Shown here: positions 2,955 to 35,221 of the stretch, piece after piece
Layout: each line of letters starts with the position of its first letter
Numbering within the stretch: the first letter of the stretch is position 1
IMG/VR virus record: IMGVR_UViG_3300037148_000025
Location: 25,415-89,414 of that record
Reading direction: 5' to 3' (one strand)
Source: a virus
DNA length: 64,000 bases
Position numbers and translations under genes: made by a program
The notes under the pieces: model-generated
What the model was told of the DNA's origin: nothing
The model's input: only the letters and a program-made list of their open reading frames with translations
Database searches by the model: none

Positions 2955-3050
2955 ATGGCTAGTTATTCACCATCAAGTAATGGACAGTCAAATCTGCCTC
3001 AGTCAACGGTCAAGTATTATGATAAAAAGTTCCGCGAGAATCTGAAGGCT
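2955..3050 (+). CDS. Major capsid protein, exon 1
   Basis: AAGGGA RBS, ATG at 2955. MASYSPSSNGQSNLPQSTVKYYDKKFRENLKA ends in U, followed by TAA at the intron start. Not in the ORF track. Confidence 0.85.
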
Positions 3051-3298
3051 TAAAATTTGGGTCTTCTAAAACTTGACTATATCGGTGGAACCGTGCTATA
3101 ATGGACACATTATGGCAGACAATACCGAGGAAAGACAGAATGCTGCAATTAAACAACTTTTCACAACCGCATTCTGAATCCCTAGAGACTAATACGTCAG
3201 GAATTGTAGGAAATTTTACTACGATTAAGATAGAGTCCGATCTGCGTGGTGACATGCAGAGTGAGCCAACAGTGATGTTGGATTCCTAAACACAAATA
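3051..3298 (+). ncRNA. Group I intron 1 in capsid gene (no ORF, about 248 nt)
   Basis: P1 GAAGGCU/GGUCUUC with a U.G at the splice site. P3 CUUGAC/GUCAGG. P7 GAGACUA (3185-3191) pairs with the S element AAGAUAGAGUCC (3227-3238). P9 hairpins present. IGS UUUG pairs with the 3' exon CAAA (P10). An alternative in-frame 3' end at 3292 is possible. Confidence 0.88.
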
Positions 3299-3519
3299 CA
3301 AACACCATTCGTAGCATGTTCCGAACGTTTGGACTTGCCTACAAAGAGTGGTAATCAATATGAACTCTTTATGTATGTACCTATGGCTGCTAACACAACT
3401 CAGACTCTTGAGGGAACTGTTGGGGCAGGTATTTCAGTAAACGTTTTGACTACAACGGCCACCATTGGCGAATATGCAGATTACGCTAACTTTAGCTCGC
3501 TTTCGTTAGCTACGGCGAT
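3299..3519 (+). CDS. Major capsid protein, exon 2
   Basis: QTPFVACSERLDLPTKSGNQ...LEG...TIGEYADYANFS..SLATA, a pattern typical of the N4-gp56/HK97-fold capsid N-half. In frame with exon 1 after splicing. Confidence 0.85.
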
Positions 3520-4503
3520 TAATTAATCGGTTGCCGTTAAATGGTTCTATATCGGTGAACCTCTGCTTAGCAGACAATACCGAGGAAACTTGAATGAAAG
3601 AAAAAACTAAGGCGTATTTAGCAGGATTGTTCGACTCAGAAGGAGATGTGTCTATTAGTAGACATATTTCTAAAGAGAGAACGTACGTTGTTAAAGGTAA
3701 AGAATATACTTACGAAAATTACACTTCATATGGAGTAAGTTTGGCAGTATATAATACATATTTACCTTTAATGAAATATTTAGTTAAGCATTTTGGTGGA
3801 ACATACCGAATGCTACGAAAGGAAACTGAAGTTAGACAAAATGTGTATGCGTGGAAACCGGATGGTTCTAAACATGCACTAAAAGTTCTAAAATTAGTTT
3901 ATCCTTATGTTGCAATTAAGAAGAATCAAGTAAATTTATGTATACAATTTTTAGAACTTGAAGGAGAGACAGTTCCAGAAATTAGAAAAAATTTGTATAA
4001 TGAATGTTTAATTGCAAATTCAAGTTCCGTAACGACTGACACGAACCATATTGTTAAATGGAAAATTAATCTACAAAATGCTTATTTCTCCGCGATTTTT
4101 GATGGAGAGGGAACAGCAGCGGTATACCACGGTCCTACTATTTGGATTGCTAATTCAAATAAAAGCCTTCTGGAAACAGCAAAGATTTTATTTAATGCCA
4201 ATAATGTAACTGGCGGATATAGAAAAAATGCAAAATCAGATAGGTTACCTGAGTATAGAGTTTGCGTTCCTGTAGAGCAAATGGAAAAGTTTATTTTAAG
4301 AATACTCCCGTATTCTACAATAAAGCATGAACAACTTCTTTTGGTACTTGAAGCTTTAAGGGGGGTTTCAAAGGAACGGAAGAAGAAAATTCAAGATAAA
4401 CTTTTTATGATTAAACATCCATTGTCAATAAAGATACAGTCTGGACTCACAAGTGATTGTGAGAATTCTCTAACAGAGATGTTAGAAGATAATAACAATA
4501 TCA
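3520..4503 (+). ncRNA. Group I intron 2 in capsid gene (984 nt, carries homing endonuclease)
   Basis: P1 GGCGAU/GUUGCC with U.G. P3 AUGGUUC/GAACCAU. P6 GGAAACUUGAAU/AUUCAAGUUCC. P7 ACGACUG (4032-4038) pairs with AAGAUACAGUCU (4431-4442). P10 UCG/CGA. A 19-nt stretch is identical to intron 1. Confidence 0.88.
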
Positions 4504-4517
4504 CGACAATACTGTAG
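3594..4517 (+). CDS. Intron-encoded double-motif LAGLIDADG homing endonuclease
   Basis: Motifs YLAGLFDSEG and YFSAIFDGEG, LxPY..IK, basic and AT-rich. Confidence 0.92.
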   Translation: MKEKTKAYLAGLFDSEGDVSISRHISKERTYVVKGKEYTYENYTSYGVSLAVYNTYLPLMKYLVKHFGGTYRMLRKETEVRQNVYAWKPDGSKHALKVLKLVYPYVAIKKNQVNLCIQFLELEGETVPEIRKNLYNECLIANSSSVTTDTNHIVKWKINLQNAYFSAIFDGEGTAAVYHGPTIWIANSNKSLLETAKILFNANNVTGGYRKNAKSDRLPEYRVCVPVEQMEKFILRILPYSTIKHEQLLLVLEALRGVSKERKKKIQDKLFMIKHPLSIKIQSGLTSDCENSLTEMLEDNNNITTIL

Positions 4518-5236
4518 AAAACGTAGCACGTGAACTTGCATATCGTCTTGGCGAATCGCTGAGCGGCCTTGTTCGCGCAACGGCTGACGGTGCGGCAGCG
4601 GTTGATACAAGCGTTCTTACAAAGCTTGCAGCAGGCGCATCACCATCAACCGTATTTACAGCACTGAGTCTTGATCAGATTCGTAATGCTGTGCAGAGTC
4701 TTGCAGGTCGTTCAGTTCGTCCGTTTGACGAAGCAAGCAAGACATTTGTAGGTGTAATTCACCCATTTGCTCTGGGCGATGTTCTAGCTGACGCTACTAA
4801 TAACTCACCTATCGACATCTTGAAGCACACTCCAGTTGGTCTAGCACGTATGGAAGACCTTATTTCTGTTGATTTGACAGAAATGATTGAACTTCCTTCA
4901 ACTGGTGTTCGTTTCTTCCAGACTAACCAAGTTACAACCACACCTAGCTACAATTCTGGCGCTGGTGCATCAATCTTTACTGCTCTTCGTACCTACATCT
5001 TCGGACGTGACGGTATCTTTAGCATTAAGCTTGGAGCACAGGGCGACACAGGCTTTGGCGACGGTGAGTGGAGCAATATTAAGTGTAACGTAGTACAAAA
5101 TGCTGCACCTAGCGTTGCTGATCCTGAAGGGTTGATCCCCGGATGGACTAGCTATCGTGTACATTTCACGACTTCACTTGGTCCTGATACAACAATCAGA
5201 ATCCGTGAGATTGACGCTGCAAGCGCAATTAGCTAA
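4504..5236 (+). CDS. Major capsid protein, exon 3 (spliced product about 349 aa)
   Basis: Junction AT|C GAC gives ATAIDNTVENVARELAYRLGESL... It continues into ORF 4691..5236 (IHPF, GVRFFQT, TYIFG, ADP motifs of N4-gp56-like capsids). Exons total 1050 nt, a multiple of 3. Confidence 0.88.
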
Positions 5237-5254
5237 GGCTAAGTCTAACTAATT

Positions 5255-5282
5255 ATGTGGGAGAGAGAAATTTCTCCCACAT
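5255..5282 (+). terminator. Stem-loop after capsid gene (attenuator or processing site)
   Basis: ATGTGGGAGA...TCTCCCACAT inverted repeat with no U tract. Confidence 0.45.
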
Positions 5283-23537: not shown

Positions 23538-26393
23538 ATGCCAACTCCAAGTTCAGCAGTAGTAGATACTCAAGATTCAGCGTCTAGCCCATATCAGGGA
23601 GTGTCAACTCCTCCTCCCGATGGCACGGCGGGAGATGTTGGTAACACATCTGTAGCAACTGCTCCAGCGCAACCGGTGCAAGCTGCACAGCCAACTCAAG
23701 CAGCGCAAGCGACACAGCCAGCGCAGCCAACGCAGGCGACGCAGCCGGGGCAACAGGCACAGCCAGCACAAGACGGCAAACCCTCTCCTGCGTCTAAAAA
23801 CGCTACATCTGTGACTCCTAATGCTCCGGTAAATCCCGCTACTCCTGATCCTTCTCTAGAAGCGTCCAAAAAGACGGCGTCAAGGGTTACAAAAATAGCA
23901 CAAATTTTTACTGGTGGTCCCCGCTATTCCTATACGGTTGATGACTCTGGAAAGACGATAAAAACTGAGGTTCCCGTTAGTGGGAAGCATTTAGGTCTTG
24001 CTATTGCTATGGAAATGTTATCAGGAGCATTTGCAGGATTGGGAGCAAAGCCGGGTCCGAATTTCTTAGGTAACGCTGGAGCAGCCGGTCTTCAAAAAGG
24101 TGAGGAAATTGCAGGTCAGAGACAGCAACAGGATCAAGCAGCACAAAAACAGGCACAGGAAGATTTTGCAAATAAAGCACAAGTGACTGAGACAAACCTT
24201 AGAATGTACTCTATGGCTCGTACTGTGGGGAATATGGAGGAAGAATCAACCGATAAGTATATTGGTCAGTATACTCCAACCTTGAACTTGCTTAAAGAGA
24301 AGGCTCCTAACTTCATCGAAGGTCCGGTTAAGTATAGTGATTTTGCAAAGTACAATGTAACGGCGGATAATGCAATTCCATTTATGCGTGTTGCACGTTT
24401 GGGGTCAGACGGTAAACAGGTGAAGAATGCCCAAGGTGTACCACAATGGGATGTTGATTACTACATTGTGAAACCCGGACTAAAACTTACTAATTTGTTC
24501 ACAAAAGACGACATGGCTACAGCAAAAGAAATGGGATTGTCATGGGCAGGAAACGACTCAGTGATGACATCTCCAATCGAGTTAGCTAATTTCTTAAATA
24601 TTAAGTCAAAGCTTGCTAGCTGGAATGTTGGTAATGCTAAAGTTGCTAGTATGTTTAAAGAGGGAGATGCAGCGGGACAGAATCCTCAAGGAAGTTCGGT
24701 AACTCCTACGAAGTCTCCTGAAATTAAAGACCCAAAAATTTCCTCATTAGCTGAAACAGCGGCTACGACTAATGGAGTTCGTCCCGAATATGTAAAGGCT
24801 TTGATTACACAAGAGAGCCACGGTAATCCGAATGCTGTAAGTCCTACAGGAGCCAAAGGTCTGATGCAGCTTACCCCATCTATGGGAAACTTGTATCCTA
24901 AAAATCCATTTGATCCAGAGCAGAATGTGAATGCTGGTACGGCATACCTTTCTCAATTATTGAAGACCTATAAGGATGATCCTAAAAAAGCTTTTGCAGC
25001 TTATTATAGTGGTCCTTCTGCGATTGGCCCCAATGGAGAAATACAAGATACCGCCCAACACTCTGCGGAAAATACACAGAATTATGTTAATAGTGTGTCG
25101 AGTATGGTTGGTTTGGGAGAGAAACCATCACCTAACCCAAATGCTGTTCCTAATGCGGCCCCGGCTAATAGATTGTCGTTAGAACAATGGAATGCCAAGA
25201 ACCCTACTACAGGTTCAGATATGGAAGCTTTTATGGGAGCTATGAACGGGCTTACATCCGACAAAGCTGATATGATTGGTGACGCACTTGCTCATCTTCA
25301 TTCTACAGGAAATGACTCAGCGGCTAATAATATTGCCGCATTTATGAATCAAGGAAATCCTGATTTTATTCGTGATCACGACGATGCGCTTACTGCGCAG
25401 CGTTTGCAGGAAAAATCTGATGTAGGAGTGAAAGCAGCAGAAGAGAAAGCTAACTTTAAAGCAGCGAGTGATGCAAAAATATCATCTGCTCAGCAGGCAT
25501 TTTTAGTTCCTCCTGATAATTTCAAATTTGATCCTAAAGTTTTTGATATGAATTCCGTTGATGCCAAAGCTGCACTGATTAAGCAGGGAGTCAAGATTCC
25601 GTTTAACTTTGATGCCCTGTGGTTAGTAGGACACCTTAAAGCACCAATAAGCACCATTCTTCCAGTGAGAACAGCGCAGAAATTTTCTCCCAATGAAATG
25701 GATGCTCAAACGGGTGCGTCATACATCAATGAGTTTATTAATCCTGGATATGACCAAAAGAATTATATACCGGCTCAGAAAGTACTTGCTGAGAATGCAT
25801 CTGGAAACTCTAAGAATGGCATGGCTATTCAGAATGCTGGAGTGGCTGCGCAGCATTTAACTAATTTAGAGCAGGCAGCTAGAGCAATGAATGGCGATTT
25901 AACTACAATGCCCTATCTAAACTCCCTAATAAATACTTATCATTTCCAGACCGGCGCATCTCCGGTTGTAATTTATAATGCAATTCTTCCAATTGCAATT
26001 CAAGAGGCCAGCAAGGTAAGTGCAGGCGGGGCGGTTCCATATGAAGATCAGGTAAAGAAGAATGAAGATAACTTTAAGGGTGCTCTTACTTTAGCACAGA
26101 AAGAAGGGGCTATCGAGGCTGTAACTAAACTGATGTATGGAAGAATTAGCGCAATTGATGAAAATACTTATGATATTACTCAGACGCATTTAATCAATGT
26201 TCCCAGTGGAGCAACTAAAATTTTTAAAAACTATGGGTTAGACACGCCGTGGGAGAAAAGCGGGGCCGGGCAACAACAACAATTTAAACCCAATGATACT
26301 TCTCAATATGCACAGATAAGCAAGTCCGGTAAAATTGGCATGGATGGTTCGGGTCATAAGTATATTATCGCAACGGGTCAACCGACGCAGTAA
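23538..26393 (+). CDS. Ejection protein with soluble lytic transglycosylase (SLT) domain
   Basis: QESHGNPNAVSPTGAKGLMQL...FDPEQNVNAGTAYL...AAYYSG at about 24750-25110, and AQP repeats at the N-terminus. Confidence 0.85.
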   Translation: MPTPSSAVVDTQDSASSPYQGVSTPPPDGTAGDVGNTSVATAPAQPVQAAQPTQAAQATQPAQPTQATQPGQQAQPAQDGKPSPASKNATSVTPNAPVNPATPDPSLEASKKTASRVTKIAQIFTGGPRYSYTVDDSGKTIKTEVPVSGKHLGLAIAMEMLSGAFAGLGAKPGPNFLGNAGAAGLQKGEEIAGQRQQQDQAAQKQAQEDFANKAQVTETNLRMYSMARTVGNMEEESTDKYIGQYTPTLNLLKEKAPNFIEGPVKYSDFAKYNVTADNAIPFMRVARLGSDGKQVKNAQGVPQWDVDYYIVKPGLKLTNLFTKDDMATAKEMGLSWAGNDSVMTSPIELANFLNIKSKLASWNVGNAKVASMFKEGDAAGQNPQGSSVTPTKSPEIKDPKISSLAETAATTNGVRPEYVKALITQESHGNPNAVSPTGAKGLMQLTPSMGNLYPKNPFDPEQNVNAGTAYLSQLLKTYKDDPKKAFAAYYSGPSAIGPNGEIQDTAQHSAENTQNYVNSVSSMVGLGEKPSPNPNAVPNAAPANRLSLEQWNAKNPTTGSDMEAFMGAMNGLTSDKADMIGDALAHLHSTGNDSAANNIAAFMNQGNPDFIRDHDDALTAQRLQEKSDVGVKAAEEKANFKAASDAKISSAQQAFLVPPDNFKFDPKVFDMNSVDAKAALIKQGVKIPFNFDALWLVGHLKAPISTILPVRTAQKFSPNEMDAQTGASYINEFINPGYDQKNYIPAQKVLAENASGNSKNGMAIQNAGVAAQHLTNLEQAARAMNGDLTTMPYLNSLINTYHFQTGASPVVIYNAILPIAIQEASKVSAGGAVPYEDQVKKNEDNFKGALTLAQKEGAIEAVTKLMYGRISAIDENTYDITQTHLINVPSGATKIFKNYGLDTPWEKSGAGQQQQFKPNDTSQYAQISKSGKIGMDGSGHKYIIATGQPTQ

Positions 26394-34509: not shown

Positions 34510-34585
34510 GGGAGTGTAGCTCAGTTGGGAGAGCGCAAGTTTTGCATACTTGAGGTCGCAGGTTCGATCCCTGTCACTTCCACCA
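34510..34585 (+). tRNA. tRNA-Ala(UGC)
   Basis: Cloverleaf with G3.U70, anticodon loop UUUGCAU, T-loop UUCGAU, A73 and encoded CCA. Confidence 0.93.
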
Positions 34586-34603
34586 AAACTATCAGGGAGA
34601 AGT

Positions 34604-34816
34604 ATGCATAAGCATGTTTTTGACACAAAAGTAGGTTACGAAATGCCGGGACCGCCCTATTACAAAATTCTTATATTTTGTAAGTGTGGTGTGTTTGAAA
34701 CATATGATGTCGTTAGTGGAGAAAGAGGAGCATGGGAAAACCAGAAGAGAATAAGTCGGTACGCTGTACGAGGGTTAGAGACAGGGAAATTCTCGGAGAC
34801 TACTACCGAGATTTAG
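34604..34816 (+). CDS. Small hypothetical protein
   Basis: RBS GGGAG before MHKH. CKCG motif. Confidence 0.45.
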   Translation: MHKHVFDTKVGYEMPGPPYYKILIFCKCGVFETYDVVSGERGAWENQKRISRYAVRGLETGKFSETTTEI

Positions 34817-34970
34817 CTAACAATTATGGTCACTATGTTCCCCATACTAAGAAGGATGGAACAGTAACTGCTCCTGCATTGCAATGGCCTTTCCATCCAG
34901 ACATTTCTGAGTATGAGAATTTGTAGAATTGGTATATGATACGCGTCTTTTACCAACTGGTATTATATAC

Positions 34971-35045
34971 TTCGGGTTCGTTCAATGGTTAGGACACCGG
35001 GCCTTGAACCCGTGAATCGGAGTTCGAGTCTCTGACCCGGAGCCA
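34971..35045 (+). tRNA. tRNA-Gln(UUG), atypical C33
   Basis: U1-A72, G73, CCA. Loop CCUUGAA and T-loop UUCGAG. Confidence 0.8.
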
Positions 35046-35067
35046 GAAAGGACAGCACGGAAGTTAA

Positions 35068-35143
35068 TCCGGGATAGCTCAATTGCTAGAGCATTCGCCC
35101 TGTAAGCGAAAGTGTGAAGGTTGAAGTCCTTTTCCCGGAGCCA
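35068..35143 (+). tRNA. tRNA-like gene, anticodon UGU (Thr) on an Asn/Gln-like acceptor
   Basis: Acceptor UCCGGGA/UCCCGGA-G-CCA. Anticodon stem UUCGC/GCGAA with loop CCUGUAA. Non-canonical D-loop (UGCUA) and T-loop (UUGAAG). Confidence 0.7.
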
Positions 35144-35146
35144 AAC

Positions 35147-35221
35147 ATACTCATGGTCTAACGGCATGATGCACGTCTCCAACACGTTGAGGTTAGGGTT
35201 CGAATCCTTATGAGTATGCCA
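35147..35221 (+). tRNA. tRNA-Trp(CCA)
   Basis: A1-U72, G73, CCA. Loop CUCCAAC and T-loop UUCGAAU. Confidence 0.82.

Follow-up and report, generated by a model that had tools for sequence, protein, structure and literature searches.

Structure of the interrupted capsid gene

We analysed an interrupted structural gene in a 64,000-nucleotide (nt) stretch of viral DNA (IMG/VR record IMGVR_UViG_3300037148_000025, positions 25,415 to 89,414), the whole of which is called the window in the following. The genome is that of a complete 89.4-kilobase (kb), podophage-like phage from peat, whose nearest cultured relative infects the acidobacterium Tunturiibacter. Between positions 2955 and 5236 the list of open reading frames (ORFs) contains fragments only. 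As proposed in a preliminary description, these fragments belong to a major capsid gene in which two group I introns separate three exons. The two introns are spliced out of environmental RNA and both end in an adenosine, at the place where sister introns of related phages carry the terminal guanosine (omega-G). The gene comprises the following parts, where aa denotes amino acids and P a paired region:

2955..3050, plus strand: capsid exon 1, 32 codons, ending in ...AAG GCU; placed by translation and homologue collinearity, RNA contigs end or join at 3050
3044-3050, plus strand: last 7 nt of capsid exon 1, P1 partner of 3060-3066
3051..3298, plus strand: intron 1, a 248-nt group I intron without ORF, last base A3298
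3299..3519, plus strand: capsid exon 2, 73 codons and 2 nt, ending in ...GCG AU; placed by translation and homologue collinearity
3520..4503, plus strand: intron 2, a 984-nt group I intron with an endonuclease ORF, last base A4503
3594..4517, plus strand: predicted LAGLIDADG homing endonuclease ORF, 307 aa, stop codon 14 nt into exon 3
4504..5236, plus strand: capsid exon 3, 1 nt, 243 codons and the stop TAA; RNA contigs start or join at 4504

Joining 2955-3050, 3299-3519 and 4504-5236 (96 + 221 + 733 nt) gives 1050 nt, i.e. 349 codons followed by the terminal stop. Intron 1 is inserted after codon 32 and intron 2 within codon 106, whose second base closes exon 2 and whose third base comes from exon 3. 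The uninterrupted 349-aa protein that had been expected from this join was confirmed: it is read in a single frame and is collinear with uninterrupted homologues of 343-344 aa. Across the junctions these homologues read ...FRENLKAQTPFVACSE... and ...SLSLATAIDNTVENVA..., and the junction peptides ...ENLKAQTPF... and ...ATAIDNTVE... are exactly those predicted beforehand. Their DNA has 0 extra bases at either intron site. A junction solver that maximizes the similarity to the reference allowed for intron 1 the boundaries 3050/3299 or a shift by 1 nt (to an intron with C before it and U at its end), and for intron 2 the boundaries 3519/4504 or 3520/4505, and nothing else.

Using exon 3 as query we obtained 437 homologues, mostly of 343-344 aa and some of them named N4-gp56 family major capsid protein in their source; the identity to more than 400 of them was 77-88%. 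Exon 3 is 83.5% identical to the major head protein of the Tunturiibacter phage Tunturi_3, a 97.6 kb podovirus with a host from the Acidobacteriota (PMC11924767). The order portal, two unnamed genes, acetyltransferase and capsid is common to the window and Tunturi_3. A megablast search against GenBank phages gave no match, and neither did Pfam and PHROGs for the capsid exons. The model TIGR04387 (N4-gp56 capsid) matched an uninterrupted homologue with an expectation value (E) of 7.5e-11 and 41.9 bits, which lies under the curated equivalog cut-off of 60. By the NCBI threshold the protein would thus be a relative of the N4-gp56 family outside its membership.

An AlphaFold model built with 57 diverse homologues reached a predicted local distance difference test (pLDDT) score of 88.5 and a predicted template modelling (pTM) score of 0.83. 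Its best structural matches were the capsids of Moo19 (E = 3.5e-13) and N4 (E = 1.3e-12). Every match listed from the PDB was a capsid protein of a phage or an archaeal virus, and behind the N4-like capsids only HK97-fold ones followed. The modelled protein shares the HK97 fold with the N4 gp56-type capsids (TIGR04387; PDB 9e99, 9d7z), which are its best structural matches, but the sequence similarity is weak (13-14% identity in the structural alignment) and the window protein is shorter (349 versus about 400 aa). In view of the match between the model and solved capsids of the N4 type, and of the annotation as major head protein in a cultured relative, we assign to the gene at 2955-5236 a major capsid protein of predicted HK97 fold and N4-like type, which upholds the capsid identity initially suggested. 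In the model the site of intron 1 lies in the N-terminal arm and that of intron 2 just ahead of the long spine helix (residues 109-139).

Directly 3' of the capsid stop, at window positions 5245-5280, there is a perfect hairpin (AUGUGGGAGA...UCUCCCACAU) that lacks a U run; RNA contigs continue through it into the next gene.

Splicing in environmental RNA

The stretch is present in 14 peat DNA data sets and in 6 peat metatranscriptomes. Evidence for splicing was taken from contigs of four RNA runs that come from four studies. Contigs of all four runs contained the joint 3050 to 3299, which skips 248 nt, as well as the joint 3519 to 4504, which skips 984 nt, in both cases with zero positional ambiguity. 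The spliced RNA that the preliminary description had called for was thus found for both introns. The joined contigs had 0 mismatches to the exons of the window over up to 2.6 kb: one contig comprises exon 1 and exon 2, while another one of 2.6 kb comprises exon 2, exon 3 and downstream sequence. In terms of RNA depth, values of 23-190 for the exons compare with 0-33 for the introns, and the exons were about 5-10 times deeper in all four runs.

The joined RNA form carries the allele GCU-CAA at the first junction (the hyphen marks the splice point here and below). Intron-bearing alleles have GCU-CAA, as P1 and P10 require, while intron-less alleles mostly have GCG or GCA; among the uninterrupted relatives GCU-CAA occurs in 4 of 50. 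Overall, both introns are excised in nature at exactly the predicted positions, such that one frame of 349 codons is restored.

Architecture of the two introns

With the Rfam group I model RF00028, whose gathering score is 50, intron 1 reached 50.3 bits on 2955-3259 (E = 8e-10, calculated for the whole window). For intron 2 the match covered the 3' part and had 28.8 bits (E = 1e-4), which is under the gathering score. The covariance-model check suggested at the outset gave a match at the threshold for intron 1 and one below it for the 3' core of intron 2. Intron 1 is predicted to contain the full set of group I helices from P1 to P10, all on the plus strand (bp, base pairs):

3044-3050/3060-3066, plus strand: intron 1 P1, 7 bp, with the pair U3050.G3060
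3056-3059/3299-3302, plus strand: intron 1 P10, 4 bp, CAAA/UUUG
3072-3077/3196-3201, plus strand: intron 1 P3
3082-3087/3123-3128, plus strand: intron 1 P4
3095-3103/3108-3116, plus strand: intron 1 P5, paired by hand
3129-3131/3179-3181 and 3136-3143/3169-3176, plus strand: intron 1 P6
3187-3190/3234-3237, plus G3185-C3238, plus strand: intron 1 P7, GACU/AGUC
3204-3209/3219-3224, plus strand: intron 1 P8
3240-3241/3296-3297, plus strand: intron 1 P9.0
3242-3248/3253-3259, plus strand: intron 1 P9
3266-3271/3276-3281, plus strand: intron 1 P9.1

The introns contain no P2, P5abc or P7.1/7.2. Intron 2 closely copies intron 1 in its 5' and 3' modules:

3512-3519/3530-3537, plus strand: intron 2 P1, 8 bp, with the pair U3519.G3530
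3527-3529/4504-4506, plus strand: intron 2 P10, 3 bp, CGA/UCG
3552-3557/3578-3583, plus strand: intron 2 P4, near identity to intron 1
3563-3566/3570-3573, plus strand: intron 2 P5, near identity to intron 1
about 4364-4367 and about 4374-4377, plus strand: intron 2 P7 5' strand and P3 3' strand, tentative placement within the ORF
4430-4503, plus strand: intron 2 3' module, 73.7 bits with model R1
4438-4441, plus strand: intron 2 P7 3' strand
4444-4445/4501-4502, plus strand: intron 2 P9.0
4446-4463, plus strand: intron 2 P9
4469-4486, plus strand: intron 2 P9.1

The 3' module runs from the joining region J8/7 through P7', P9.0, P9 and P9.1 to the tail. Over this module intron 2 aligns column for column with intron 1 and with eight introns of related phages. 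The alignment covaries: 96.6% of the cells are paired and 13 of the 15 pairs are changed on both sides, while slid partners are paired in 24-48%. In the whole 89-kb genome the 3'-module model finds 2 copies, which are exactly intron 1 and intron 2.

Both introns place an in-frame stop close to the preceding exon, as was stated in the preliminary description. Intron 1 opens with UAA directly in frame. Intron 2 starts with AU-U AAU UAA, such that the stop is the second whole codon past the split codon.

The 307-aa ORF of intron 2 contains the two motifs LAGLFDSEG and FSAIFDGEG. It matches Pfam PF14528 (E = 1.3e-8, 35.4 bits versus a cut-off of 22.5) and PHROG 5046 (E = 1e-27), by which it is predicted to be a LAGLIDADG homing endonuclease. 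It begins in the P6 loop and runs through P7', P9, P9.1 and the 3' splice site. Sister introns in related phages carry LAGLIDADG-like ORFs of 167-260 aa, and for many of these ORFs the stop is the UAA within the conserved tail CCUAAACA. A search for relatives of the intron 2 endonuclease, carried out for the covariation of the core, returned two distant matches only (25-31% identity). At the site of intron 1 the related phage locus L013 has an intron of 1202 nt with an ORF of 260 aa. Because this same-site intron carries an ORF, intron 1 is best understood as an ORF-less derivative of the ORF-bearing introns found there in other phages.

Within intron 1, positions 3073-3102 match 11 of 12 bases of a sigma-70 promoter (TTGACT, 18 nt, TATAAT, with TG). 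The match overlaps conserved P3 and P5 sequences and is probably a by-product of the ribozyme consensus.

A terminal adenosine in the place of omega-G

The last intron bases are A3298 and A4503, as fixed by the RNA joints, the homologue collinearity, P9.0 and P10. This terminal A, on which the preliminary description did not comment, is the unusual feature of the two introns. From the in-frame stops to the exon starts the intron tails do not contain any G. We considered sites that would provide the U before the intron and the G at its end. For intron 1 the sole in-frame option of this kind, 3051/3312, deletes the conserved QTPFV. For intron 2 such sites alter the conserved D or leave an exon ending in A. 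In both cases the RNA joints contradict these sites.

Terminal adenosines are also found outside the window. The introns at the intron 1 site in the loci L013, L017, L019 and L028 likewise end in ...AAAUA-CAAAC. Further A-ending introns are located at position 276 of the coding sequence (CDS) in L039, L040, L041 and L062 and at position 159 in L062. A 109-kb phage (L129), whose capsid gene is 39% identical, has an intron at the same NLKA- site without a G near its 3' end. A-ending and omega-G introns alike end 69-71 nt past the start of J8/7, with the terminal base in the same alignment column; as judged from this alignment, the terminal A is positionally homologous to the omega-G of the sister introns.

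P9.0, which is formed by the two bases before the terminal A with two bases of J7/9, is Watson-Crick paired in 6/6 A-ending introns, and occurs among them in the compensatory versions AU:AU, GU:AC and UC:GA. P10 has a length of 4 bp in intron 1 and 3 bp in intron 2 of the window; L013 and L028 have a P10 of 6 bp in their introns at the intron 1 site. The guanosine-binding G-C pair of P7 is kept (GACU/AGUC). Its neighbouring pair and bulge occur in two covarying versions, GAGACU/AGUCC and ACGACU/AGUCU, each of which is found with a terminal A and with a terminal G. Since the P7 versions occur with both terminal bases, the same core appears to serve A and G. The combination of GAGACU/AGUCC with GAYC as a P7/J7/9 signature of A-ending introns had to be rejected: L024_s89 has the signature together with an omega-G, and L013_s96 and L062_s159 have an omega-A without it.

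In the literature searched we found no report of an omega-A in phage or bacterial introns, which is not proof of absence. The new element of the present system is the non-G intron ends, which are backed by the RNA evidence and by the G-ending sister introns.

Introns in related phage capsid genes

Among the IMG/VR relatives 75 loci were informative for interruption of the capsid gene, and 25 of these 75 are interrupted. The interruptions in the relatives are located at CDS positions 63, 69, 89, 96, 159, 164, 267, 271 and 276, to which the window adds 317; these sites, nine or more, all lie within the first 106 codons. One of the sister introns with an omega-G is the 254-nt intron at site 164 of L040. 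Two ribozyme types are present: that of the window, which comes with LAGLIDADG ORFs, and another one at site 69, whose ORFs are endonuclease VII-like. The A-ending tail is the same in the introns that L062 has at sites 159 and 276, which suggests recombination between introns of one gene. More distant capsid genes hold several introns each. For the 106-kb and 80-kb contigs L090 and L092 (L090:2481-5869, L092:4067-7455), whose capsid homologue is 42-53% identical, seven 3'-module matches were found within 3.4 kb, an extreme intron load for one gene.

Some relatives contain much shorter insertions. A frame-shifting insertion of 41 or 40 nt follows codon Tyr21 of the capsid gene in three loci (L040:3788-3828, L041:3788-3828, L055:3813-3852). 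Its P1 (GAAGUAU/GUACUUC) has a U.G at the junction and its P10 (UCAUA/UAUGA) is 5 bp long; the last base is G, but a ribozyme core is lacking. Full-size group I introns lie downstream in the same genes. The insertion may derive from a deletion and be removed in trans, or it could be passed by translational bypass. Bypass seems less likely than removal from the RNA, because the stop codon does not directly adjoin the take-off codon and one Tyr would be lost. A pattern scan for this mini-insertion returned only the three known capsid contigs, with seven other matches being unrelated. A second core-less insertion of about 49 nt, located in L024 at about 195-243 and at the same place in L059, follows ...UUCUACGAU and ends in ...AAUAAUG. 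Its guide sequence UUGUCGUAG is common to the full-size introns at site 69, and 20 nt past it there is a 663-nt G-ending intron at CDS position 89.

The introns are also visible in public gene calls. The proteins P0008, P0010, P0011, P0014, P0028 and about 30 others are truncated calls of 245-298 aa that begin at the first Met or alternative start past the intron, one of them on the last UUG of an intron. Such calls make up about one quarter of the best protein matches, and therefore the N-terminus of the capsid family is under-represented in public protein sets.

Elsewhere in the window, at 34510-35218, there is a cluster of four transfer RNA genes (Rfam RF00005, 46-67 bits).

Discussion

The observed RNA joints and terminal bases can be accommodated by the usual two-step scheme of group I splicing. 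In each intron the P1 helix with its usual U.G pair would set the 5' splice site. The 3' splice site would be set by the 2-bp P9.0 just before the last intron base together with P10 to the first 3-4 exon bases. In the first step a free nucleoside, presumably guanosine as cofactor, would attack the 5' splice site, and in the second step exon 1 would attack the bond after the terminal base. Here the terminal A would replace omega-G in an otherwise ordinary guanosine pocket, where it may be held mainly by P9.0 and P10. The reaction would be self-splicing that proceeds without protein. Translation of RNA that is left unspliced would meet a stop no more than one to three codons past each 5' splice site.

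We assign a probability of roughly 85% to the reading that the capsid gene harbours two related, mobile group I introns, which are spliced by the joints described above and carry a terminal A in the omega-G place of an ordinary guanosine pocket. Several points weigh against it. In published mutants of model introns a change of omega-G to A cripples exon ligation. The centre of intron 2, with P6', P3' and the P7 5' strand, could not be folded convincingly, and its Rfam score is sub-threshold. A protein helper may be needed, as the one known natural omega-A intron is thought to rely on unusual processing. Finally, the evidence for splicing consists of contigs, which leaves as a formal alternative a strain, in DNA or RNA form, that lacks the introns but is identical in all other respects. 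In this case the exon-exon contigs would stem from a co-occurring variant (contaminating DNA or its messenger RNA), and the introns of the window would be unspliced or spliced elsewhere. Metagenomes do hold many strains, related capsid sequences are present in the same RNA runs, uninterrupted relatives are common (50 of 75 loci) and DNA can occur in RNA libraries. However, the joined contigs are free of mismatches to the window exons over up to 2.6 kb and carry the intron-associated allele GCU-CAA, which is rare among uninterrupted alleles (4/50), while the exons exceed the introns in depth in every RNA run. Moreover, an unspliceable intron in a capsid gene would be lethal, yet the genome is complete and was recovered from 14 DNA data sets. 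We thus consider an intron-less source of the contigs highly improbable.

The remaining explanations concern how an A-ending intron is processed. With omega-G lacking, excision at these sites could need a phage or host protein, such as a maturase-like LAGLIDADG activity or a chaperone, or a ribozyme acting in trans for the second step. This would fit with omega-G being regarded as essential for that step (PMC8146996, PMC6545197), with the ORF-less intron 1 sitting 221 nt from intron 2 on the same transcript, and with the core-less 40-49-nt insertions of the relatives (P1, P10 and terminal G), which are removable only in trans unless they are bypassed. On the other hand, neither the core nor the range of ORF types differs between A-ending and G-ending sister introns, and in L028 the ORF-less A-ending intron stands alone at its site, such that we judge a requirement for such help unlikely. 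A change in the specificity of the nucleoside pocket of this intron lineage, by which adenosine or adenosine triphosphate (ATP) would start the reaction and A would end the intron, appears to us barely credible. In its favour, the same pocket is used for both steps in known group I introns, and the terminal A is kept in introns at four or more sites, also in a capsid gene that is only 39% identical. However, P7 retains its guanosine-reading G-C pair (GACU/AGUC), and the bases beside it (G-C with a bulged A, or A-U with a bulged C) are found in A-ending as well as G-ending introns, so that one core type serves both. An ordinary guanosine pocket that accepts a terminal A remains the preferred reading.

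Comparison with known introns

The preliminary description had considered two introns in the capsid gene uncommon. The location in a phage capsid gene is indeed uncommon but known: the mycobacteriophage LittleE (Cluster J) has a group I intron with a homing endonuclease in its major capsid gene, which is efficiently spliced late in infection (PMC3706429). In LittleE and in the window alike an endonuclease-bearing intron splits a phage major capsid gene, and the spliced protein is collinear with that of intron-less relatives. LittleE, however, has a single intron with U before it and G at its end, while the window has two introns that both end in A and that belong to a family which, among related phages, occupies nine or more sites in this gene.

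The only natural precedent that we found for a group I intron ending in A is the mitochondrial ND5-717 intron of hexacorals (sea anemone, mushroom coral). It has an omega-A with correctly ligated exons in transcript data, and its authors proposed that the omega-A suppresses hydrolysis at the 3' site and circularisation (PMC8146996, PMC6545197). Both systems thus combine a natural group I intron with a terminal A and perfectly ligated exons. In contrast, ND5-717 resides in an organelle, is obligatory and inherited vertically, accommodates whole genes within P8 and is poorly spliced, with back-splicing in some species, whereas the phage introns are small, mobile (LAGLIDADG ORF), located beside G-ending sisters with the same core and apparently well spliced.

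Several introns in one phage gene are known as well. Twort orf142 has three group I introns in one gene (PNAS 1999, cited in PMC6669764), JCL1032 has introns in late genes (cited in PMC6669764), and the introns of the intron-rich Jug phages, for which terL, nrdD and DNA polymerase are the genes named, were validated by metatranscriptomes (PMC12880540). Twort and Jug resemble the present case in having several group I introns per phage gene and splicing confirmed by exon-bridging RNA reads; they differ in that these sources, as far as read, report no non-G intron ends (PMC6669764, PMC12880540).

Implications

Group I introns are taught to end universally in omega-G and to require it for their mechanism, and this assumption is built into intron databases and search tools. 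Compact A-ending phage introns that are apparently well spliced in the field and have G-ending sisters of the same core make it possible to ask directly how strictly the second step depends on guanosine. They are also relevant to the proposal, made for the coral intron, that a terminal A suppresses side reactions such as hydrolysis at the 3' site and the formation of circles. With its first 106 codons so densely colonised, the capsid gene offers a natural setting well suited to the study of how homing sites are chosen and how introns recombine. Because gene callers break these capsid genes, the annotation of soil phages under-reports their main structural protein.

In a wider sense, the data tilt us slightly towards the idea that a mobile lineage of phage introns has dispensed with omega-G. 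A single core would then ligate after A or G, the 3' site would be chosen by P9.0 and P10 and not by guanosine recognition, and the core-less 40-49-nt insertions may be trans-spliced by neighbouring introns. If this is true, the small (231-248 nt) natural pairs of A-ending and G-ending introns would form a test system, and the terminal guanosine would be a dispensable feature of group I catalysis in nature.

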